Made by a program: the position numbers and the translations under genes
The notes under the pieces: model-generated
The model's database searches: none
What the model was told of the DNA's origin: nothing
Seen by the model: only the letters and a program-made list of their open reading frames with translations
Part shown: one piece after another, positions 38,922-50,339 of the stretch
Numbering within the stretch: the stretch's first letter is position 1
Layout of the letters: the number at the start of each line of letters is the position of its first letter
DNA from: Promethearchaeota archaeon
Lineage (GTDB): Archaea; Asgardarchaeota; Lokiarchaeia; Sigyniarchaeales; SOKP01
NCBI GenBank assembly: GCA_019057795.1
Contig: JAHLWS010000043.1
Span: forward strand, 13,746-77,745
Direction of reading: 5' to 3'
DNA length: 64,000 bases

Positions 38922-39332
38922 GTGTATCTAATGGGTTTTGAGGAAGATAATAACGAGGAATTTGATGAAGAATTTGACGAAGATCTAGATGAAAACCTTG
39001 AGGAAGAATTAGATGAGCCTTCTACAAAGTCCCCCACGGAAGATTTTACAGTTAAAACTCCAGATGATAAAATCTCACATGAAGGAAAAAAGATTTCAGT
39101 GTATTTTCTATCAACCATAGGACCTGGTGAGAAAAAACAAAAATTACTTGTCTATACTGGAAATTTAGTAAGAGATATAAAAGAGACTGTAGCAAATTTG
39201 TTTGCTTTAGATCCTGCTGACTTTCATCTCTCATCCGGGGGAGTTACCATGGATGAGGGTAATCAATTAAGTGATTATAATTTGTCTGATGGAGACGATA
39301 TATTACTAATTCCAGCTAGCGTTGCTGGTTGA
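38922..39332 (+). CDS. Ubiquitin-like modifier 1 (acidic N-tail, C-terminus ...ASVAG)
   Basis: Beta-grasp pattern VYFLSTIGPGEKKQKL...IKETVA...LSSGG.TMD...LSDYNLSDGDDILLIP. Confidence 0.88.
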   Translation: MYLMGFEEDNNEEFDEEFDEDLDENLEEELDEPSTKSPTEDFTVKTPDDKISHEGKKISVYFLSTIGPGEKKQKLLVYTGNLVRDIKETVANLFALDPADFHLSSGGVTMDEGNQLSDYNLSDGDDILLIPASVAG

Positions 39333-39347
39333 ATAAGTTGGAAGGAT
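39186..39347 (+). repeat. Direct repeat copy 1 (3' half of ubiquitin 1 and flank); copy 2 at 46606-46767
   Basis: 128/147 coding nt identical by hand alignment; offset 7420 bp. Confidence 0.9.
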
Positions 39348-39559
39348 CCAAAAGTTAATATTATTTTCTCCTTCTCTTTTCTCTTGAAGGAATCAAATCG
39401 GTGAGAGTTATTATGGTTTTTAGCATAGCAATTGTATGTTTTTTATTTGAATTAAAAAGTAAAAATCTTTGTTTTAATTTAGAAATCGGTCAGCATCAAA
39501 ACATTTAAATACTTGACGAATCTTGTTCTTCTTAGCTCGTTTACTAGAAGAATACTTTC

Positions 39560-40396
39560 ATGATTGAATTTAAAGTTAACGATTACGTCTCGCTTCGATT
39601 GGAAGATGAGAAGACCGTTATTTATGTAGCTGGCAAAAGGTTTAGGCAGTGTATAAATTTATTGCTATATATCCCCGTTGATGAAATACGCGAATTTGAC
39701 CAAATAGAGTCTATTGACGAAGCCGCGGAAAGACTCGATAAATCGACGGAAGACGAGGTTTCACCAATAATAATTCCGGCTAAAGTTGAATTCTGGGGGC
39801 ACTGCAGCAATTTACAGGTTTGGTTCGAAAAAAACTACGATACAAGAATTCTTCGTTCCAACATAGCTTTTCCGTTATTAAGAAAATTAAGCGAATCGGG
39901 CGATATGGTTGCTCTAAGAGTATTCAAAGAAGAAATCGCAAAGAGATTTTCTCAAGGGCACGATACCGTTTGCAATTTTCTAATTGAAGAAGGATACATG
40001 GACTTACTTAACAGAGAAGAGGTTCTTAGCTTAAATATCGAACAAATAGAAGTTATACACGAATTAGAAGACTTGTTAGGAACAAGAATTAAGTTTAAGA
40101 CGGGAAAACATTTATTCGAACAAGGGTTCGTGCTTGATAAAGGAATTATCAAAGGGTTAGTGTTAGACAGCTGCGATCTTGAAGAACTTCCCAAACCAGT
40201 AAGAAAACTAAAATCGTTAGAAGTACTTAAACTGCACGGTAATCGTTTAGAAACGCTTCCAGAATGGATCGGCGAACTTCGGAAATTAAAGTCTTTATAT
40301 GTGCAAAACAATCGGTTGATTAGACTTCCAAACTCGCTCGGGAAGTTGAGTTCTCTTGAAAGTATAAAACTTTTTTTTTTTTTTTTATTGGCATGA
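39560..40396 (+). CDS. Loki-type LRR protein, apparently truncated at a T16 run
   Basis: EFWGHCSNLQVW...AFPLLRKL...FKEEIAKRF domain followed by LxxLxLxxNxLxxLP repeats that break off into FFFFLLA. Confidence 0.75.
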   Translation: MIEFKVNDYVSLRLEDEKTVIYVAGKRFRQCINLLLYIPVDEIREFDQIESIDEAAERLDKSTEDEVSPIIIPAKVEFWGHCSNLQVWFEKNYDTRILRSNIAFPLLRKLSESGDMVALRVFKEEIAKRFSQGHDTVCNFLIEEGYMDLLNREEVLSLNIEQIEVIHELEDLLGTRIKFKTGKHLFEQGFVLDKGIIKGLVLDSCDLEELPKPVRKLKSLEVLKLHGNRLETLPEWIGELRKLKSLYVQNNRLIRLPNSLGKLSSLESIKLFFFFLLA

Positions 40397-40513
40397 ATAA
40401 TAAACCTGAAATTAATTTTACAACGCCTTCTCAAGGTAATATATCAATTTATAAACAACTACATTATTTTTGAGATGAGGTTTATGATAATCCTACAGAT
40501 TTATAGAGAAAAT

Positions 40514-41242
40514 TTAAGGAAATTGAAGGGTATTTAAAAACGATTTTGGAACTGTTCTGGCAATAGTTACTAGTTTAAATTTTATGAAATTAGATTTTGA
40601 AAGTAGTTCGATAATTCGACCTAAAGTATAACCTTGATGGAAGACATCATCAAATATTAACAAAGAACTGCCTTTTTCTATTTGCTCTAATAAGTCTACT
40701 GATTCCTCAAGTAAAAAGTACTTGTTATTCACATAATCTTTTCTATCTTTGTAAAAAGTTGTACTTGTTTTTTTTTCGAATAACTGATTATAAGGGATCC
40801 AAGTTAGGTTTATATTCTGAGATATTTCAGAAAATAAATTTATCATTTGTAAATTAGTTGTGGGAACCATTGTTGCATAAATTATATCCTCAATTTGCCA
40901 GTCCGAATTTGAAATTTTTTCGTTAAGAATTAGCTTTAGAATTTCATGGGAGTGTTTAAAGGGTTGCAAGCTGATTTTCCTTAATATATCTCCAAACCAA
41001 TTTAAAGGATTTCCCTCATAATCTGTCTCATAAAAATGACCAGTTATGAAAGAAATTTTGCTTTCAAGTGACTCTATACCTGAATGACATTCTTTTGGTT
41101 TATCTGAAACATTAGGGTAAAAACAAACTGGACATATTGATTTGTATTTATTTTTTAGAGCAAACTCTTCATTTGTGTCAGTATTTTTAATTATGATATC
41201 CCATGGGTCAAATCCTTTTAAATAACGAAAAGGCATATTCAT
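40514..41242 (-). CDS. Phosphoribosyltransferase-fold (ComF-like) protein
   Basis: LLIFDDVFHQGYTL PRPP-loop variant; terminal VTIART; N-terminal CPVC. Confidence 0.75.
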   Translation of the reverse strand: MNMPFRYLKGFDPWDIIIKNTDTNEEFALKNKYKSICPVCFYPNVSDKPKECHSGIESLESKISFITGHFYETDYEGNPLNWFGDILRKISLQPFKHSHEILKLILNEKISNSDWQIEDIIYATMVPTTNLQMINLFSEISQNINLTWIPYNQLFEKKTSTTFYKDRKDYVNNKYFLLEESVDLLEQIEKGSSLLIFDDVFHQGYTLGRIIELLSKSNFIKFKLVTIARTVPKSFLNTLQFP

Positions 41243-41961
41243 TATAAGATAGCTTGTGATAATAATTGTAGAAATTTAAGAATTATATTAGGTTTATGTT
41301 TTCCATATATTAAAATCGAACCGTTTTTATCAATTCTAATTGTAATCCATTTATTTTCTTGATATAACCCCTTAATTTTAATAGTTATCGCTTTTACTTG
41401 TTCTGATTGTTTAATAAGTTCAGTAATAATACCAAGTTCGTTAACATCATTTGCATGTATATTTAATTCGTTTATTTTATCCGCTTCTATATAAGTCCTT
41501 TTAAGAATGAGTCTATGGATTTTTAAGGTAAGACCACTATTTTTTATTGATAGTAATTTTTTCCAAACTTGCCATAACTGTTTTTCGTTAAAGATAATTG
41601 ATTTAGAATCAGCTATATCACGTAAATAGACCTGTAATAAATGTTCAATCTTTTTCTCGGCTTTTCCAACTAGCAATAATTGATTATATTTTAAAATCAA
41701 TTTTTCATGATTAATCCACAGAGTCTGTTTATCTTGGAACTTTTTATACTCTTCTACTTTCATTTTAATCACAGATTTTTGCTGTATTGGTTCGAAAGAA
41801 AGATTCCTATAAGATTTTTTAGCACTTTCTACAAATAACTTTAGGGTTTGAGGATCATCTTTATTCACTTTTACCTTACTCAAGACATCTTCATCTTCAA
41901 GATTATTTAGAGCATATTTTTCATTAATTTCTAATAATTGAAATGATGGTATTTTAATCAC
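41242..41961 (-). CDS. Hypothetical protein
   Basis: 239 aa; 1-nt stop/start overlap with the PRTase gene. Confidence 0.7.
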   Translation of the reverse strand: MIKIPSFQLLEINEKYALNNLEDEDVLSKVKVNKDDPQTLKLFVESAKKSYRNLSFEPIQQKSVIKMKVEEYKKFQDKQTLWINHEKLILKYNQLLLVGKAEKKIEHLLQVYLRDIADSKSIIFNEKQLWQVWKKLLSIKNSGLTLKIHRLILKRTYIEADKINELNIHANDVNELGIITELIKQSEQVKAITIKIKGLYQENKWITIRIDKNGSILIYGKHKPNIILKFLQLLSQAIL

Positions 41962-41973
41962 ACTCTTAAATTT

Positions 41974-43656
41974 TTATATTATTATATTATTTATATCAGT
42001 TAAAAATGCATTATCTAACCTAATACGAGCAACCGGATTTGTTGTATATGGGGGATAACCTTGACCTCCATGATTGTATTGAAAATTGAAAATTGTATTG
42101 CGAACATTTTGAATTGAACGGTCTGGATGGTTCATTGCATCTTGGTTTCCTATAATAATTAATTTTTTCTTTGCTCTGGATAAGCCCACATACATCAGAT
42201 TGAATTGTGTAAAAAAATCAGATTTAGTTCGTGGTCGAGCAAAGGTTAATGAATATATAACTGCTTCTGCTTCTTGTCCTTGATATTGGTGTACTGTCCC
42301 AGTTCTGACATTATGATTCATAAAAATCTCAACTTGAGGTCTATAAGGGGCCGTTAATATTATATCCTCATTTGATAATACTTGATAAGCATGTCTCAAT
42401 GCATAATAAACCCCGAGCGCAATCTCAGCTTCACGCTCATTTATCCTTGATCTCCCGACTGTTCGATCTAATGCTTGAGGAATATCAGAAGTATCTAAAA
42501 TCACAAGAGGATGGTCAGGCTTCAATATTTCATCTAAAACATTCAATGTTTGTTGATTAAGATTCGGAATATTATTTAAATCATAATTAGTTCTTGGTAG
42601 TACGTAATCATTTGAGGTTGTTGGAGCATCAGGAATGACGGTTCGAGGTATGGGGAGAATTCTTTCAGTTATCTGTGCTATTGCGGGATGCATTCGATAT
42701 TGTCGATGTAATTCAATTCTTCTATCTATTGGAATAGGAATATTTTGATAAGTATTCATTCCCTGTAAATATGATAGCGCGCTGACACCTAATGGAGCTA
42801 ATGTAGATACAGGAGGTAATTGCTTATCATCACCGATCATACAGATGGATTGAATTGTATGCGTGGGTATAACTTGGTAAAATTGAGGAACAGTCAATTG
42901 ACTAGCTTCATCGTATATAACACCTCGTACTCTGACATTCGATCTGGGATCATTTGTTAATATTGAAAGTGAGTCAGTAGTACCAACAAAAATTAGGACC
43001 TCTCCCAATATTGCATTCCAATCTCTTTGTTGTATAAAGGTGTTACTTGGCATTCTATTATTAATAATAAAGTCATCAGGATTTAAATTTAGTCTTTGGT
43101 GTAAAACCTGAAAAGAATAAGAATCTTGAGCATACTGGGATTGTACTAATTTTATCCTCTCAAAATAATCTGGTGTATTTGCAAGTGATGCTATTTCATG
43201 GAATTTTTCATAAATTCTGTACGCTCCAGCATTCGAAAAAGTAGCAATGAAGACTCGTTCTGGTTGACCCCTATCTCTCCTAGCTCTTAAGAGATTTCCT
43301 GGTGTAAATACTCGAAGTGCACTTCCGGAACATATAACATGTGTCTTTCCCGTACCAGGTGGGCCTATTACTAATGTTGAAGCAACCACCTTTCGACTAA
43401 TATGAAAATTATTTCCAGGATCAGTAAATGTATGGATTTGTTCTGGAGGAACGTTACTTATACGGGCGGGTAATTGAGTTGATCTTTTATTTTGTGGAAC
43501 ATTTTCAATGGGATCTCTTATAGCTCGTACTGCTCTTCTCTGTTCAGAATTGAACGGAATAGTAGGTCTTATAAACTGGACTAGCCCTGTTTGAGCATTA
43601 AGACTCTGCTCTAAAAAGTTATACAAAACCTCTTCCCAATTATTTATTTGAGCCAT
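41974..43656 (-). CDS. SF1 helicase, DNA2/NAM7(Upf1)-like
   Basis: GPPGTGKT, ATFSNAG, YDEASQ, GDDKQLPP, QYRMHP, TVHQYQGQE, YVGLSRAK. Confidence 0.92.
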   Translation of the reverse strand: MAQINNWEEVLYNFLEQSLNAQTGLVQFIRPTIPFNSEQRRAVRAIRDPIENVPQNKRSTQLPARISNVPPEQIHTFTDPGNNFHISRKVVASTLVIGPPGTGKTHVICSGSALRVFTPGNLLRARRDRGQPERVFIATFSNAGAYRIYEKFHEIASLANTPDYFERIKLVQSQYAQDSYSFQVLHQRLNLNPDDFIINNRMPSNTFIQQRDWNAILGEVLIFVGTTDSLSILTNDPRSNVRVRGVIYDEASQLTVPQFYQVIPTHTIQSICMIGDDKQLPPVSTLAPLGVSALSYLQGMNTYQNIPIPIDRRIELHRQYRMHPAIAQITERILPIPRTVIPDAPTTSNDYVLPRTNYDLNNIPNLNQQTLNVLDEILKPDHPLVILDTSDIPQALDRTVGRSRINEREAEIALGVYYALRHAYQVLSNEDIILTAPYRPQVEIFMNHNVRTGTVHQYQGQEAEAVIYSLTFARPRTKSDFFTQFNLMYVGLSRAKKKLIIIGNQDAMNHPDRSIQNVRNTIFNFQYNHGGQGYPPYTTNPVARIRLDNAFLTDINNIII

Positions 43657-43676
43657 AATTTTTCTGACCTAATATA

Positions 43677-45425
43677 TTATACATATCTTGCAAATCTACC
43701 AAATGTGGCAACTCCAACTCTTTTATATCGCTCATCTAATCTACGTTCTAGGATATCGTCTGGGCTTAATGGATTTCCAGACCGCTCAGAAAATTGGATC
43801 GCTCTAATTAATTGCTTCTTTTGTCTCTTTATGTTAAAAATATCTTCGGTAATTGATAGTTTTCCGATGATACAATTAATATTATTCCCTCCGCCTACAC
43901 TTGCCAAGTTATAAGGATTGTTTTGAATCCATGGGTTCATAGGAACTATAGGATTTATAATATAATCATTATTAACTAACCTTCTCTCGAATGATATCTT
44001 ACAGTCACTTTCATAACATAAAGGGGACATCAAACAGACATCATATTTTCTATCTGAAACTTCAGGTAAAGTCCAGTGATTTGGCATTGAAGGGTGAAAT
44101 ATCCATTGCTGTGTATTATCTTGATATATCTCTCCAATCCAAAAACTTGAGAATTGATTTAGATCAAATAGTTGTAATGGAAAAAGTCTTGTAATTTTAA
44201 ACAGTGTTTCGTGTTTAAATACAGCTTCATCTCTTAGATACCTTAAGAATTTGTAAACATTTGATTCCACTCGGTCTCTGGGAAATTGTTGATTGCTAAT
44301 TCGTCTATCTTTCATCCCACACCCTTGTGTCCCACCTATTGGACAAAAGTAATCTCCTGGTATGTTTTGACCAATTTGGAAAGGACAAGGATTGAAACCT
44401 TGAAATGAATTCACTATCCCTGGATAATTTGAATATAAAAAATTTAAAATGATTGCAGCTTGTCCAGTTTCATTTTTAAAATTCTGTGTGGGATTCATTC
44501 TAATTGAATGATCAATAGTGTCTACGATAATATCAAACTCTCTAAAATTAAAATTATTAAGATCATAATATGAACTGAAAATAACATTATCCATTGCATC
44601 ATAGAGTTCGAGAGGAAGTTTTTGATTCTCCACTAATTGTGCTAAACTTTCTCTCAATATCCACATTTTATGAAATTCTTTAATGATAAAAAATAATCTA
44701 ATTCCCTCTGGTGTGTTTATATTATCTCTTAGATCTATGGGAGGATCGAAAAAATTATCTGCAATTGGAACTGGTACACGAATCTCACGATTTTTCAAGT
44801 GAATTATGGGAATAATTCCCTTGATAGCTATAAGTCCCCTCCAGTAAAAACTATTTGCGGGTCGTTGCGAGCCAATTCCGATATTTGCTCGTCTTAATTG
44901 GGTGAGTGTAACCCTTGTATTGTCTGACCTGTAGATATTAAAATCTTCATTTAATACATTCAAATTGAATAAGACATCACGTGACGAATGATATCTATCT
45001 AAAATATTCTCATTATTTAAGCGTTCTAAATACTGGCTAATATAATTCATAGTTCTTATATCAGAGTCTTCAGGATCTGAGTTTCCTCTAATGGAATCGA
45101 GAAGTTGTCCTGGGTCTCTGATATTCCTCATTATCGAGTCGGGATAGGTGCTTCGTGCTAATGCCCGCATCAAAACTACCGCAAACTCCCGAAATCTAGA
45201 CTCAAAATTGAAATATTGCGGAAATTCTTCGTTTGGGTCATTTGGGTTTACCAATAATCCACCCCACCTCGGAAAACTACCTCTTATCAATTCAAGAAAT
45301 CGCCATCGATAACAAGGATTGCAAAATTCATCAACATCCGCAAAAGGGAAATATTTAAGATTAAAAGGTGTCCAAACTCCATCTAATATCGTTCTCTTTG
45401 ATGCTCTCTTGAAACTTCTACTCAA
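43677..45425 (-). CDS. Hypothetical protein, possible Dna2/Cas4-like Fe-S nuclease
   Basis: 582 aa; N-terminal DVDEFCNPC and a later three-Cys group (PCPF...FCP...GCG); directly upstream of the helicase. Confidence 0.6.
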   Translation of the reverse strand: MSRSFKRASKRTILDGVWTPFNLKYFPFADVDEFCNPCYRWRFLELIRGSFPRWGGLLVNPNDPNEEFPQYFNFESRFREFAVVLMRALARSTYPDSIMRNIRDPGQLLDSIRGNSDPEDSDIRTMNYISQYLERLNNENILDRYHSSRDVLFNLNVLNEDFNIYRSDNTRVTLTQLRRANIGIGSQRPANSFYWRGLIAIKGIIPIIHLKNREIRVPVPIADNFFDPPIDLRDNINTPEGIRLFFIIKEFHKMWILRESLAQLVENQKLPLELYDAMDNVIFSSYYDLNNFNFREFDIIVDTIDHSIRMNPTQNFKNETGQAAIILNFLYSNYPGIVNSFQGFNPCPFQIGQNIPGDYFCPIGGTQGCGMKDRRISNQQFPRDRVESNVYKFLRYLRDEAVFKHETLFKITRLFPLQLFDLNQFSSFWIGEIYQDNTQQWIFHPSMPNHWTLPEVSDRKYDVCLMSPLCYESDCKISFERRLVNNDYIINPIVPMNPWIQNNPYNLASVGGGNNINCIIGKLSITEDIFNIKRQKKQLIRAIQFSERSGNPLSPDDILERRLDERYKRVGVATFGRFARYV

Positions 45426-46270
45426 TCTAAATCACCCCATGGTATTATTTTAATATTCAAATCTACCATCCTTACATATACTAATTCGTTTATAATGTCT
45501 GCAATTTCATCTAATTCCTCATCCATAGTTTTATCACACTTATTGTCTGACTTTAGTTTCAGATATTGTGCTAAAATAACTCTTTTAAATATTGGTAAAT
45601 CGTCATACTTGTAAATTATTTTTTCTTTTCTTATTTCAAGTAAAGATATAATCCACTTGAATAATAAATGTAGAGAAAGGACAATATCAATCTCTTCATC
45701 ACTCAATTTGGAAAAAAAAGACTTAAAATCTTCTTCATACATATCCAATTGATATCTAGCATAATTAATTAGTGTTGCATCATCGGTATCGTCATTCTCT
45801 TCATCAAATAGATTATCATAAAGCAATTTTTCTAAACTTGAAGGAATGCAGATATCATTTGATGCAATAAAAGATATAAACCCATGGTATTTCCGATCTT
45901 TTCTCCATTTTTCCATTAATGTCTTATCTGTGGATATGAGTTCATATAAATGTTTACAAATGGTATTAGGGCTAAAGGGAATGATTCTAAATACTTTTTT
46001 TGATGTTTTGCTGATATTTTCAGTCTCATTTGGTTTATCTTTTTTTTCAGATAGAATTTTTATACAGACGGGAAAATCCTCATCGGGGTATGTTTCTTTC
46101 AAGTTCATTAAAATAGCCCATAATTTAGATGCTAAGAGCTCTTGTTTTATTTTTGAATAATTAATATTGAGATTGAAATGAGGACAATTGCTATTAAATG
46201 ACCCTATAAGTTTTTCAAGTTCTTTTTTAGGTGTATTTAAAAGAACTTTCCTTAATTCCATTTTGTCCAT
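45422..46270 (-). CDS. Hypothetical protein
   Basis: 282 aa; 4-nt overlap with the next gene. Confidence 0.7.
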   Translation of the reverse strand: MDKMELRKVLLNTPKKELEKLIGSFNSNCPHFNLNINYSKIKQELLASKLWAILMNLKETYPDEDFPVCIKILSEKKDKPNETENISKTSKKVFRIIPFSPNTICKHLYELISTDKTLMEKWRKDRKYHGFISFIASNDICIPSSLEKLLYDNLFDEENDDTDDATLINYARYQLDMYEEDFKSFFSKLSDEEIDIVLSLHLLFKWIISLLEIRKEKIIYKYDDLPIFKRVILAQYLKLKSDNKCDKTMDEELDEIADIINELVYVRMVDLNIKIIPWGDLD

Positions 46271-46605
46271 ATTTCCCTAGAAGAGATAGAATACTTTTAT
46301 ATAAAAACATTATTAATACATATTTAATATTTTAAAAAAATCAGAGATGAGACTGATTTTCTAATTTTATTTATAAACGTAAGAAGAAATAAGAAACTTA
46401 TTCTACTTTATTTTTATTTTTTATTTTATTGTATTATAGCATCGTTTTTGCTCGTTTTTAGATTATAAAAGATTTTTTATAAAAGTATCTACTAGTAAAT
46501 TAAAATTTTTTCCAAAGCATTTTATGTACTATTGCTTTTGATTTTCACACATCTCTTGCATTTTCTTCTCTCTAAAAAACTCTAAGGATTAAAAATGGAG
46601 ATTTT

Positions 46606-46752
46606 ACTGTAGCAAATTTGTTTGCTTTAGATCCTGCAGATTTTCATTTATCTTCGGGGGGAGTCACTATGGATGAAACTTCGATGTTAAGTGATTATAA
46701 TTTGTCTGATGGAGATGATATCTTACTAATTCCAGCTAGCGTTGCTGGTTGA
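46606..46752 (+). pseudogene. Ubiquitin 3'-half fragment (repeat copy 2)
   Basis: TVANLFALDPADFHLSSGGVTMDETSMLSDYNLSDGDDILLIPASVAG*; lacks the first two beta-strands; in-frame TAA at 46573-46575. Confidence 0.85.
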
Positions 46753-46876
46753 ATAGGTTGGAAAGATATAGACAATTTAATAATATTATTATCTTTTTTC
46801 ACTTCTATTTTTTTTTTTTCTTGATGGAATTAGCGCACTAGTAATTACGCGTCTTAATTTAAAATAGAAATGTATT

Positions 46877-47257
46877 CTAATTGAGTTTTTTAAGAGCTTC
46901 AATCTCCTTCATATAGGATTTCTCAAGAATCTCGTAACATTCAAGACAGTACCACACTTTGTCTCTCAGGCTGAAAATATGATCTCCTTCGATATCTCGG
47001 CAAGTTGCGCAAACGACTATTGAAGCAGAAAAGTTCTTTCGAAGATTGCTTGCTTGATCGATAACTGGCCTAACTGCAAGCAAATAATTGTCATAACTTA
47101 AAACAAGAGCTGCCCTTTTGGCTTGTAGCCTTGCTCGCTCCTCGTGAAATTCATTTAATCTTTTTTGGTAATCTTTTAAAAGAACGCGCCGAAATTCTAA
47201 GCGTATCTTCCGCAACTTTGGATTTTTTAATTTTATTAGTCTTTCTCTTTCTCTCAA
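46877..47257 (-). CDS. Hypothetical protein with CxxC...CxxC
   Basis: CATC...WYCLEC. Confidence 0.6.
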   Translation of the reverse strand: MRERERLIKLKNPKLRKIRLEFRRVLLKDYQKRLNEFHEERARLQAKRAALVLSYDNYLLAVRPVIDQASNLRKNFSASIVVCATCRDIEGDHIFSLRDKVWYCLECYEILEKSYMKEIEALKKLN

Positions 47258-47350
47258 ACCGGGCGCCTGCTTTTTATTGCTTATTTAACAAAACATGTTA
47301 CACAAAAAACAATAATAATATTTAAACTAATAGTCTCTGGAATTTATAGC

Positions 47351-47833
47351 TTAAATGTATCTGATTATCTTTACGAAACTTCTGGGCAACACTCCAGGTA
47401 ACATCGAATCAAAGACCTTGAAGTCTTCCGTGCTTCCTAATACGCCTATCACTTTTGATAGCTGAATCTTTTTTACCAAGTTAAGCTGTTTGGTAAAAAC
47501 CGAGTTGAAATCTGTATTTAAAAACCCTGAATATCCATTGTCTTGAATTTCTACCCCCCGATCGTTCCATACTTTAAGAGAGGCCTCTAAATCGTTATCA
47601 TTTAATTCTAATATTTTCTCATAGACTCCTCGCCATTCGGCACCAAAATTATGTTTCAGAGCGGTGATTAAATCTTGCTCGGTTATTTGTCTAATCTTAC
47701 CACTCGCGTCTCGCAATCTATCTAGCTCCACTATAGTTCCTAAAAGTGCTTCTATGTAAGCTTCGGCTACACGAGGGCCCAATTCCTTAAAAAGAGGTTC
47801 AAAATCTTTCTTATGATAGCTTTTCGAGGTCAT
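47351..47833 (-). CDS. Hypothetical protein (start probably ATG 47833)
   Basis: Protein-like composition from MTSKSYHKK; the upstream part of the track ORF is antisense to another ORF. Confidence 0.5.
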   Translation of the reverse strand: MTSKSYHKKDFEPLFKELGPRVAEAYIEALLGTIVELDRLRDASGKIRQITEQDLITALKHNFGAEWRGVYEKILELNDNDLEASLKVWNDRGVEIQDNGYSGFLNTDFNSVFTKQLNLVKKIQLSKVIGVLGSTEDFKVFDSMLPGVLPRSFVKIIRYI

Positions 47834-47848
47834 AGCAAAATCGCCAAA

Positions 47849-47998
47849 GTGGAGATTTACAACGGTAAAAAAGAAAAAATAAGAGAAAACGAATCTTGTT
47901 TCTATTGTGGAAGCACAAATACAGAAACTTTCAAACATTGCAACGGTTTGATGTTTGAGATTCATTGCAACAGTTGTGGAGAAAATTCCATTTATTAA
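47849..47998 (+). CDS. Small zinc-ribbon protein
   Basis: CFYCGS...HCNSCG. Confidence 0.4.
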   Translation: MEIYNGKKEKIRENESCFYCGSTNTETFKHCNGLMFEIHCNSCGENSIY

Positions 47999-48192
47999 AC
48001 ACGGAGATAATTTACTATCGTAATGCTTCAAGAATTCTGGTATTAGTTTTGCTTTATATACTTGTTTGCGTTCTTAATTCCTACCAAAATCAAAAAATTT
48101 ACATGATGGAAAATGATAGAATTCAATTTAATTCATTATTGAATTGCTTAACTAAGTATTATTAATACCTACAAGTACTGCGAGCTAATAAT

Positions 48193-48978
48193 TTACTTTC
48201 TCGATGGAATCAGGGCTATTTCGTCGTCATCGTCAATAGGAAAGCCCCTTATCGGCTTAGATTCGTCTAATAAAATCCCCCCAGATGACAATAGAAAATC
48301 TTCTAGATTATAATCAAATAATATTCCAACTTTTTCTTTAATGACACTTACTAATTCAGACGTATCAATAATGAGAATCTTAGTTTTCTCACCTGATTCG
48401 ACTAATGACCTTACATAAACACGTATTTTCTCATCCATTCCAATGGTATGCAATGGTGGGTTGTATATCACCTGTTCCTCAGTTAGGCTCTTGGTTTCTA
48501 ACATATCTTCAATTAACTGTTTTCTCTCGTAAGCGTTAAAATACAACATTTCCCTAATAAAAAATATTTTATCCATTTTTGATAATCCTAAGAGATTAAT
48601 TTTAGCTATTTGCTCTTTACTAAAAATAGTAAAAATATAATCATCCATCGATTCTATTTCTTCAAACGATTCCAACGCATTCGCATATTTATCTACTAAA
48701 GGCATTGCATCAAAGTAATCCTCAAGTAGAGCACTACTTTTTTTCTTAAGTGGTTTTTGTTTAGGAAAAGATTTAATGCCTTTCATCTTCACAATAGGGA
48801 TACTTTTAGATTGAAAAACCGTGTAGATAGTGCCTGTGGATAGCACAGCAACACTCCCAATTGTTAAAAAGAGATATACTGGAACATTTTCTACTTGTAA
48901 AAATATAAGAATCAAATAGATAAATGCAATCCCTACATAAAGAGTAATGAGACTTAATATTCTATAATTCTTTCTCAT
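48193..48978 (-). CDS. Membrane-anchored protein with C-terminal non-conjugatable ubiquitin-like domain
   Basis: Two N-terminal TM helices; C-terminal VYVRSLVESGEKTKIL...IKEKVG...FLLSSGGILLDE...DDDEIALIPSRK aligns with the local ubiquitins but has no terminal Gly. Confidence 0.8.
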   Translation of the reverse strand: MRKNYRILSLITLYVGIAFIYLILIFLQVENVPVYLFLTIGSVAVLSTGTIYTVFQSKSIPIVKMKGIKSFPKQKPLKKKSSALLEDYFDAMPLVDKYANALESFEEIESMDDYIFTIFSKEQIAKINLLGLSKMDKIFFIREMLYFNAYERKQLIEDMLETKSLTEEQVIYNPPLHTIGMDEKIRVYVRSLVESGEKTKILIIDTSELVSVIKEKVGILFDYNLEDFLLSSGGILLDESKPIRGFPIDDDDEIALIPSRK

Positions 48979-50006: not shown

Positions 50007-50339
50007 ATGAGTTTTGACAACGATTTTGATGAGGAATTAGAACCAGTTAAATCTAAAACCCCATCAAGTAAAACACCCTCAACAGGCAGAAAGTTGACTT
50101 TATATTTCATGTCAACTATTGGTCCTGGTGAAAAGAAGGAAAAATTAACTGTGAATGACGCTAATAATGTAAGTGACATTAAACGAACATTAGGAAATTT
50201 ATATGGACTTGATCCTGAAGAATTTCACCTCTCATCCGGAGGAGTTACCATGGATGAGGGTAATCAATTAAAGGATTATAATGTTAGTGATGGCGACGAC
50301 ATTCTCTTGATCCCAGCGAGTACTGCTGGATACTTTTAA
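50007..50339 (+). CDS. Ubiquitin-like modifier precursor (…ASTAG-YF)
   Basis: Paralog of 38922-39332; first gene of the Ub-E1-E2-JAMM-RING operon. Confidence 0.9.
   Translation: MSFDNDFDEELEPVKSKTPSSKTPSTGRKLTLYFMSTIGPGEKKEKLTVNDANNVSDIKRTLGNLYGLDPEEFHLSSGGVTMDEGNQLKDYNVSDGDDILLIPASTAGYF

Follow-up and report, generated by a model that had tools for sequence, protein, structure and literature searches.

We asked what is encoded by five adjacent minus-strand genes, g1 to g5, at positions 40514–46270 of a 64,000-nucleotide stretch of DNA from a Promethearchaeota archaeon of the order Sigyniarchaeales (assembly GCA_019057795.1, contig JAHLWS010000043.1, positions 13,746–77,745), and whether these genes belong together. 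The whole stretch is referred to as the window and all unprefixed coordinates are window positions. A previous interpretation of the locus, here called the sequence-only reading, had described an unrecognized operon containing a nuclease-like gene, a helicase gene and a phosphoribosyltransferase (PRTase) gene, and had proposed a new defense or nucleic acid surveillance system. We find that the five genes, hereafter the cassette, recur together in Asgard archaea and very probably constitute a functional mobile unit, and we lean toward an undescribed antiviral or anti-plasmid defense system as their role.

Gene Order and Conservation of the Cassette

The open reading frame (ORF) list places g1 (45422..46270 on the minus strand; 282 amino acids [aa], acidic with a pI of 5.2) as the first gene of the cassette, followed on the same strand by g2 (43677..45425; 582 aa), g3 (41974..43656; 560 aa), g4 (41242..41961; 239 aa, basic with a pI of 9.6), and g5 (40514..41242; 242 aa). 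The junctions in this list, comprising a 4-nt overlap between g1 and g2, gaps of 20 nt between g2 and g3 and 12 nt between g3 and g4, and a 1-nt overlap between g4 and g5, are identical to those given initially, and the description of a tightly packed five-gene minus-strand set is correct.

All five families are present in identical order in 10 further loci, located in genomes of the window's own phylum (G183, G179, G182, and a partial locus in G140) and in metagenomes (L004–L009), with protein identities to the window ranging from 21% to 98%. Recurrence of the families in one order across these loci goes far past what chance would give, and judging from this conservation the five genes form a single unit. 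Co-occurrence elsewhere had been named as a check on the sequence-only reading, and the genes do occur together in a fixed order. Even the g1 copy in G183, to which BLAST gives no link, is matched from end to end by the g1 family hidden Markov model (HMM) (E = 1.2e-10) and is likewise first in its cassette.

Relatives of the cassette proteins are few. We found 24 for g2, 14 for g5 and 17 for g4 among 5.8 billion protein clusters, and 21 for g1 among 1.84 billion representatives; named relatives are from Odinarchaeota and Helarchaeota. Among 400 genomes of the phylum, the same 5 have strong matches to both g4 and g5. The window's genus has 41 other genomes, all without such matches. A search of the phylum with the g2 profile missed three genomes in which g2 is only ~21% identical, and a scan of genome contigs with that profile gave no match. 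The cassette is confined to Asgard archaea, rare and strain-variable. The sequence-only reading had named universal presence in the lineage as grounds against it; with this distribution, and with a contig representing the empty site also available (see below), the cassette is not part of the lineage core.

Predicted Functions of the Five Proteins

The g3 product is, on its motifs, an intact superfamily 1B (SF1B) Upf1-like helicase, in agreement with the intact SF1 helicase originally noted. Walker A, Walker B and motifs Ia, III, IV, V, and VI are all present and invariant in seven homologues, as are the stretches GPPGTGKT, DEASQ, GDDxQLPP, QYRMHP, TVHQYQGQE, and VGLSRA that represent them. The protein matches Pfam AAA_12 (1.6e-22) and AAA_11, both above cut-off, as well as AAA_19, and its PDB sequence matches are SETX (2.4e-13), Dna2 (7e-11; g3 residues 246–508 against Dna2 760–1022), and Upf1. 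A modeled complex of g3 with g2 residues 340–582 scored 0.01, which is evidence neither for nor against an interaction.

No match to g2 was found in Pfam at E ≤0.1 or in NCBIfam, a search of PDB sequences with the g2 profile was likewise negative, and the Pfam Dna2 family (PF08696) matched nothing across the whole genome. The structural model obtained with AlphaFold2 (AF2; predicted template modeling score [pTM] 0.73) points to a PD-(D/E)xK fold of the RecB/Cas4/Dna2 type followed by a beta-barrel of the Upf1/SETX/Dna2 type. In this layout the nuclease fold occupies residues ~20–339, a cysteine cluster with conserved helices residues 347–405, and the barrel residues ~420–525, ahead of a conserved basic C-terminal tail. 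Structural comparison with VIA gave Z scores of 11.1 for RecE, 11.1 for AddA, 11.0 for MGME1, and 9.0–9.3 for Cas4. Dna2 (5ean) aligned with a Z score of 10.1 over 289 residues (model 18–529 against chain 32–569), spanning both nuclease and barrel, and was also the best Foldseek match (E = 0.019). The barrel itself resembles domain 1B of ZNFX1 and SETX (VIA Z 5.2–5.7).

Invariant residues of g2 include C38, C347, C369, D373, N389, R398, and E400; C361 is invariant until the G179 and G182 proteins join the alignment, where its placement is ambiguous. The conserved cysteines show a 1+3 arrangement (C38; C347, C361, C369) resembling an iron-sulfur (Fe-S) "staple". C38 lies within a C-x-R-x-x-F motif similar to the "YCxR" motif of Cas4, and the remaining three come just after the final helix of the nuclease core, which is the site of Fe-S ligands in Cas4, AddB, and Dna2, with a spacing of x13/x7 as opposed to CxxCx5C in Dna2. 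The most conserved stretch of the protein is this cluster together with the helices D373...N389...R398-D-E400, which the model does not resolve.

Catalytic positions in g2 were mapped with the guidance of Cas4 homologues from the window genome and related genomes. Alignment to these homologues with hhalign yielded nothing significant, the best local alignment (E = 0.23) pairing C38 with the first Cas4 cysteine. With that limit, the order of elements in Cas4 would place G-I-I-P at motif II (G-x-x-P in the family, with proline for aspartate), and topology would place E/Q/H-I-R/K/V at motif III. The label of putative nuclease therefore stands for the fold, as seen in the AF2 model and the VIA comparisons, and not for recognizable catalytic motifs; nuclease activity of g2 appears doubtful.

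The AF2 model of g4 (predicted local distance difference test score [pLDDT] 93.6, pTM 0.88) consists of two tandem alpha+beta lobes resembling the TATA-binding protein (TBP) and KA1 folds, and suggests that the protein shares the fold of RdgC and CENP-L over its whole length. Foldseek returned RdgC (2owl, E = 2.5e-5) and CENP-L (2.9e-5), each with a probability of 1.00, and VIA returned the CENP-L counterpart Iml3 (Z 8.7, 174 aligned), RdgC (Z 8.5, 201 aligned), and lambda RexA (Z 5.0). There was no Pfam match, including to RdgC (PF04381), and the ESM Atlas gave unnamed clusters only, the closest of the named clusters including CENP-L and RdgC with low scores.

A distant g4 relative of 270 aa, similar to g4 in its C-terminal half alone (E = 1e-10 to 8e-4), is encoded in G103 (L025:7185-8979) and at L035–L041, directly upstream of a phosphoribosyl pyrophosphate (PRPP) synthetase in 8/8 matching genomes from two genera of another Asgard family. 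Since a g4-like fold is twice paired with a PRPP-handling enzyme of PRTase fold, there are hints that g4 may regulate g5, beyond binding DNA.

Judged by its motifs, the g5 product combines a putative N-terminal zinc finger with a PRTase domain of type I in which the catalytic DD is retained. Sixteen residues are invariant in our alignment (A2), namely C37, C40, H53, P127, T128, N130, Y170, V171, K174, Y175, D198, D199, G204, T206, R229, and T230. They comprise the zinc-type motif C37/C40/H53, beside which C52 is nearly invariant, and the PRTase core, in which the DD is accompanied by PTxN, YVxxKY, and RT motifs. The PRPP loop reads LIFDDVFHQGYT, and the family profile aligns to the PRPP loop of HGPRT (E = 1.3e-4). 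Matches in domain databases are weak: Pfam Pribosyltran (2.2e-3; 17.7 bits, under the 26.3 cut-off), PsyrT in PADLOC (3.6e-5, over the PRTase part, 565–686 of 689) followed by ShosT (0.014), and, in NCBIfam, APRT and HGPRT alone. Neither NCBIfam ComF nor the Pfam double zinc ribbon matched at E ≤0.1. Of the earlier description as a ComF-like PRTase with a variant PRPP loop, the architecture, the DD and the variant loop are retained, and membership in ComF fails at the NCBIfam HMM.

In G179 (L022:12030-12818) and G182 (L023), the g5 frame is open over the zinc-finger part with no ATG, GTG, or TTG before it. The first usual start codon would drop the zinc finger, and a frameshift from g4 is possible in these loci.

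For g1, Pfam, PADLOC, NCBIfam, and PHROGs gave no match, and the ESM Atlas no usable one.

Limits and Mobility of the Cassette

The cassette lies in an island between direct repeats, both on the plus strand, identified with blastn. The left repeat (39186..39365) is the 3' part of a ubiquitin-like gene (38922–39332) plus 33 nt downstream, and the right repeat (46606..46787) is an orphan ubiquitin 3' part encoding the last 48 residues and the stop; the two are 85.3% identical over 184 columns. The ubiquitin-bounded island of the sequence-only reading is accordingly real. In a different sediment sample (X7), a public metagenome DNA contig runs from 39221 straight to 46642, omitting 7420 nt, with the junction falling inside the ubiquitin repeats. 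This contig is the empty site.

Three ubiquitin-like sequences are present in the window, the full gene at 38922–39332, the orphan 3' fragment at 46606–46770, and an operonic gene at 50007–50339 that precedes E1-E2-JAB genes; the island sits between the first and second. Beyond ubiquitin, E1, E2, and JAB proteins, the window, which has a G+C content of ~30%, encodes FtsZ and other archaeal genes.

The cassette itself is smaller than the island. Metagenome contig L008 is 98.8% identical to the window over 3937 nt (window 44417–40481) and then continues with unrelated genes, and a 6-kb cassette contig from X7 diverges from the window at 40497. The cassette proper therefore ends ~20–30 nt past the g5 stop. 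A plus-strand gene for a leucine-rich repeat (LRR) protein of 278 aa (39560..40396; Pfam LRR_14 and LRR_8) is separate cargo of the island, outside the cassette, because it is absent beside both of these copies. On the other side, 5' of the cassette, lies an AT-rich intergenic region (46271..46605) without an ORF of ≥60 aa, the presumed promoter region for the minus-strand genes; a cassette-bearing contig from another sample matches the window as far as 46372.

Near-identical cassette DNA is found in sequencing runs from sediment, cold-seep, and subsurface samples of several studies, with no RNA run listed among them. Cassette contigs have lower depth than flank contigs, a difference from which we drew no conclusion on abundance. 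No integrase, replication initiator, capsid or virion gene, or conjugation gene was found in the island or the other flanks examined, and no g2 or g4 relative among 2.9 million viral contigs. The cassette is, in our view, very probably functional and mobile as a unit.

Two further observations concern the surroundings of the right repeat. One contig (X9) joins 46763, in the orphan ubiquitin repeat, back to 40492 at the g5 end, thus going back 6272 nt; the join could represent a genome in which the ubiquitin 3' end abuts a cassette without the LRR gene, or a circular or tandem form. The island-less X7 contig also lacks 46838–48268, with 51 other nucleotides there instead, making that segment a second strain-variable insert beside the first island. 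It holds two ORFs (46877–47257, 126 aa; 47351–48031, 226 aa), neither with a PADLOC or PHROGs match.

Neighboring Genes

Several of the other copies adjoin defense genes. The G183 cassette comes right after two genes, one for a kinase whose C-terminal part resembles Dsr1 (PADLOC, 3.8e-37) and one for a Type IIG restriction-modification (RM) enzyme (1e-265). In L007 a Type IIG RM enzyme (3.3e-54) and the cassette are arranged head to head, and a group II intron and an insertion sequence (IS) transposase also adjoin. G179 carries a retron-type reverse transcriptase (7e-83) ~3 kb from the cassette and a RadA gene ~2 kb downstream of it. The G183 kinase (L003:9629-13687), with 1352 aa and an N-terminal protein kinase domain, is the gene immediately upstream of the cassette and adjoins the RM gene.

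At the g5 position of L009 (5350-7224) we found an ORF of 624 aa, in which residues 1–110 correspond to the zinc-finger part of g5 and the rest to an Eco57I-type methyltransferase with NPPF at residue 123 and without the S-adenosylmethionine-binding motif I. The ORF probably arose when a deletion joined g5 to the methyltransferase next to it. A functional swap of the effector was considered and rejected, as the methyltransferase part lacks motif I. A methyltransferase as a fixed sixth component was rejected as well, as the three adjacent methyltransferases are not orthologous and differ in position; the three instead indicate a defense-island neighborhood.

Comparison with Known Systems

Searches of PADLOC v2, NCBIfam, Pfam, and PHROGs returned partial domain matches alone, with only generic helicase matches in PHROGs, and we found no description of this five-gene combination in the literature. 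The failure to recognize a named system at the outset is thus confirmed. None of g1–g5 reaches HMM membership in Prometheus, Mokosh, PsyrTA, ShosTA, ComF, or Dna2.

Dna2 of eukaryotes and archaea (PDB 5ean, 5eaw, 5eax) has the same module order as g2 and g3, with a RecB-type nuclease fold bearing 1+3 cysteines, a beta-barrel, and an SF1B helicase. In Dna2, however, nuclease and helicase form one polypeptide, whereas g2 and g3 are separate genes in the window and in all other loci. Dna2 also has the canonical catalytic Asp and Glu-x-Lys, positions that do not appear to be conserved in g2, and is a core replication and repair gene, in contrast to a cassette that is rare and mobile and has three extra partner genes.

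Like the cassette, PsyrTA (RqlHI) and ShosTA couple a DD-motif PRTase to a helicase or DNA-processing partner, and ShosT, which belongs to a phage-defense system, is a PRTase that binds PRPP and is toxic (PMC11961720). PsyrT fuses an SF2 RecQ-like helicase to the PRTase, whereas the helicase of the cassette is SF1B and a separate protein. The cassette further differs in having five genes as opposed to two and a variant HQG loop, and in lacking a DprA-like ShosA, PsyrA, or a pyrophosphatase domain; PADLOC found no PsyrA or ShosA match in g1–g4. ComFC resembles g5 in its N-terminal Cys-rich zinc motif and PRTase and in being encoded with a helicase, but that helicase, ComFA, is a DEAD-box SF2 protein, and the host of the cassette is an archaeon without DNA-uptake genes. 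PRTases are linked to helicases and DNA-processing proteins both in ComFA/ComFC and where a PRTase-SF2 helicase fusion acts together with DprA (PMC5512222).

The defense proteins Prometheus (ProA), Mokosh (MkoA), and those of the Nhi type likewise pair an SF1 helicase of the Upf1/Dna2 kind with a domain of nuclease fold, and none of these systems has a counterpart of the partners g1, g4, and g5. MkoA matches the helicase core of g3 alone (2.4e-31, profile 817–1089 of 1112), and Pfam detected no phospholipase D-type nuclease domain (MkoB) in the cassette proteins. Prometheus is a single protein with a Dna2-type nuclease and an SF1 helicase and has been reported in Asgard archaea, with one split two-gene form in a Lokiarchaeon (PMC13700489). 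It is the nearest defense analogue of g2–g3. The score of g3 against the ProA equivalog (NF058533) is nevertheless 13.6 bits over 39 residues, for a cut-off of 1500, with none for g2, and Pfam found no DUF4011 or DUF3320 in the cassette proteins.

For g4, the modeled two-lobed TBP-like fold would be common to RdgC, lambda RexA, and CENP-L/Iml3 over the whole length of the protein. RdgC is ~60 residues longer, and g4 is not a member of the RdgC sequence family. Both RdgC, a ring-shaped dimer, and RexA bind DNA, and RexA is part of a phage-exclusion system. Taken with g2 and g3, parts of the cassette are predicted to share folds with eukaryotic Dna2, with Upf1-like helicases, and with the kinetochore protein CENP-L.

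Possible Function of the Cassette

We slightly favor an undescribed antiviral or anti-plasmid defense system as the function of the cassette because of its rarity, its mobility, its neighborhood, and the precedents for its domains. Of the proposal of a new defense or nucleic acid surveillance system, the parts that hold are that the genes are unnamed, mobile, and co-occurring and that they have defense genes as neighbors elsewhere; the defense function itself is drawn from context alone.

As a working scheme, g2 and g3 would rebuild a Dna2-like machine that threads free single-stranded DNA (ssDNA) or the ends of foreign DNA that is invading or replicating. Because its classical nuclease motifs do not appear to be conserved, g2 may act mainly as a sensor or guide of DNA ends and not as a killing nuclease. 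The g4 protein could bind DNA, or hold and regulate g5, and g1 is perhaps an adaptor or regulator. The g5 protein would then be the effector, using PRPP in the manner of ShosT or PsyrT either to disturb nucleotide metabolism or to alter a nucleotide or the end of a DNA molecule, with arrest of the infected cell or a block of viral replication as the outcome. A bolder version, which we put forward tentatively and would not expect to hold in most comparable cases, is a new class of prokaryotic immunity in which a catalytically silent Fe-S Dna2-like sensor and motor (g2 and g3) signals through a protein of RdgC/CENP-L fold to a PRPP-dependent effector; in this version the effector might use up PRPP or phosphoribosylate either a nucleotide or the end of a DNA molecule.

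Several points weigh against a role in defense. Guilt by association with defense islands is weak evidence. Some of the other loci have neutral neighbors (transcription factor B, RadA, and tetratricopeptide repeat proteins), and there are no recognizable defense genes among the flanking genes in the window itself. The g2 alignments contain no conserved D...ExK nuclease site, so that the cassette has no obvious DNA-killing part, and the PRPP loop of g5 is atypical, with HQG where TTG is usual. Finally, the four recognizable domain types are all also known from repair, recombination, and uptake of DNA.

This last point leads to the alternative that the cassette is an accessory module for repair, recombination or uptake, in which g2–g3 would be a Dna2-like motor, g4 an RdgC-like modulator, and g5 a ComFC-like ssDNA-handling PRTase, together processing incoming or broken DNA for the cell. 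The folds agree with such a role, Dna2, RdgC, and ComFC being repair, recombination, or transformation proteins; the pairing of a PRTase with a helicase is classical in competence (PMC5512222), and RadA is encoded near the G179 cassette. A gene set present in 5/400 genomes and varying between near-identical strains is nevertheless a poor fit to a housekeeping pathway. No membrane DNA channel or DprA is encoded nearby, no protein reaches the cut-offs of repair-family HMMs, and defense genes are frequent neighbors. We regard this alternative as unlikely.

Somewhat less likely again is that the five genes serve the maintenance, replication or anti-defense needs of a mobile genetic element and not those of the host. 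An island bounded by the duplicated 3' end of a gene is typical of integrative elements, the cassette is polymorphic for presence and absence and occupies differing contexts at ~98% identity, an IS transposase and a group II intron adjoin it in L007, and the X9 join (46763 to 40492) might reflect a circle or a tandem copy. Against this, the five genes travel as a bare cassette, with none of the integrase, replication initiator, capsid, or conjugation genes sought in the island and the other flanks examined, and the viral contigs and PHROGs offered, respectively, no g2 or g4 relative and only generic helicase matches. A very divergent split Prometheus is highly improbable, since despite the common logic of a Dna2-type nuclease fold with an SF1 helicase and the occurrence of Prometheus, including a split variant, in Asgard archaea (PMC13700489), ProA barely touches g3 and misses g2 altogether, DUF4011 and DUF3320 are not found, and counterparts of g1, g4, and the PRTase are missing from Prometheus.

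Almost one-third of the genomes of archaea show no known defense beyond CRISPR and restriction-modification (PMC12988326). If the cassette does defend its hosts against viruses, it would add a system of Asgard archaea that current detection tools miss. It would also be a third independent instance of a PRTase of the ComF/ShosT type wired to a helicase, and would help to reveal what such PRTases do. The split Dna2-like module, with its apparently dead nuclease site and retained cysteine cluster, provides a natural test case for noncatalytic sensing by Fe-S nuclease folds.

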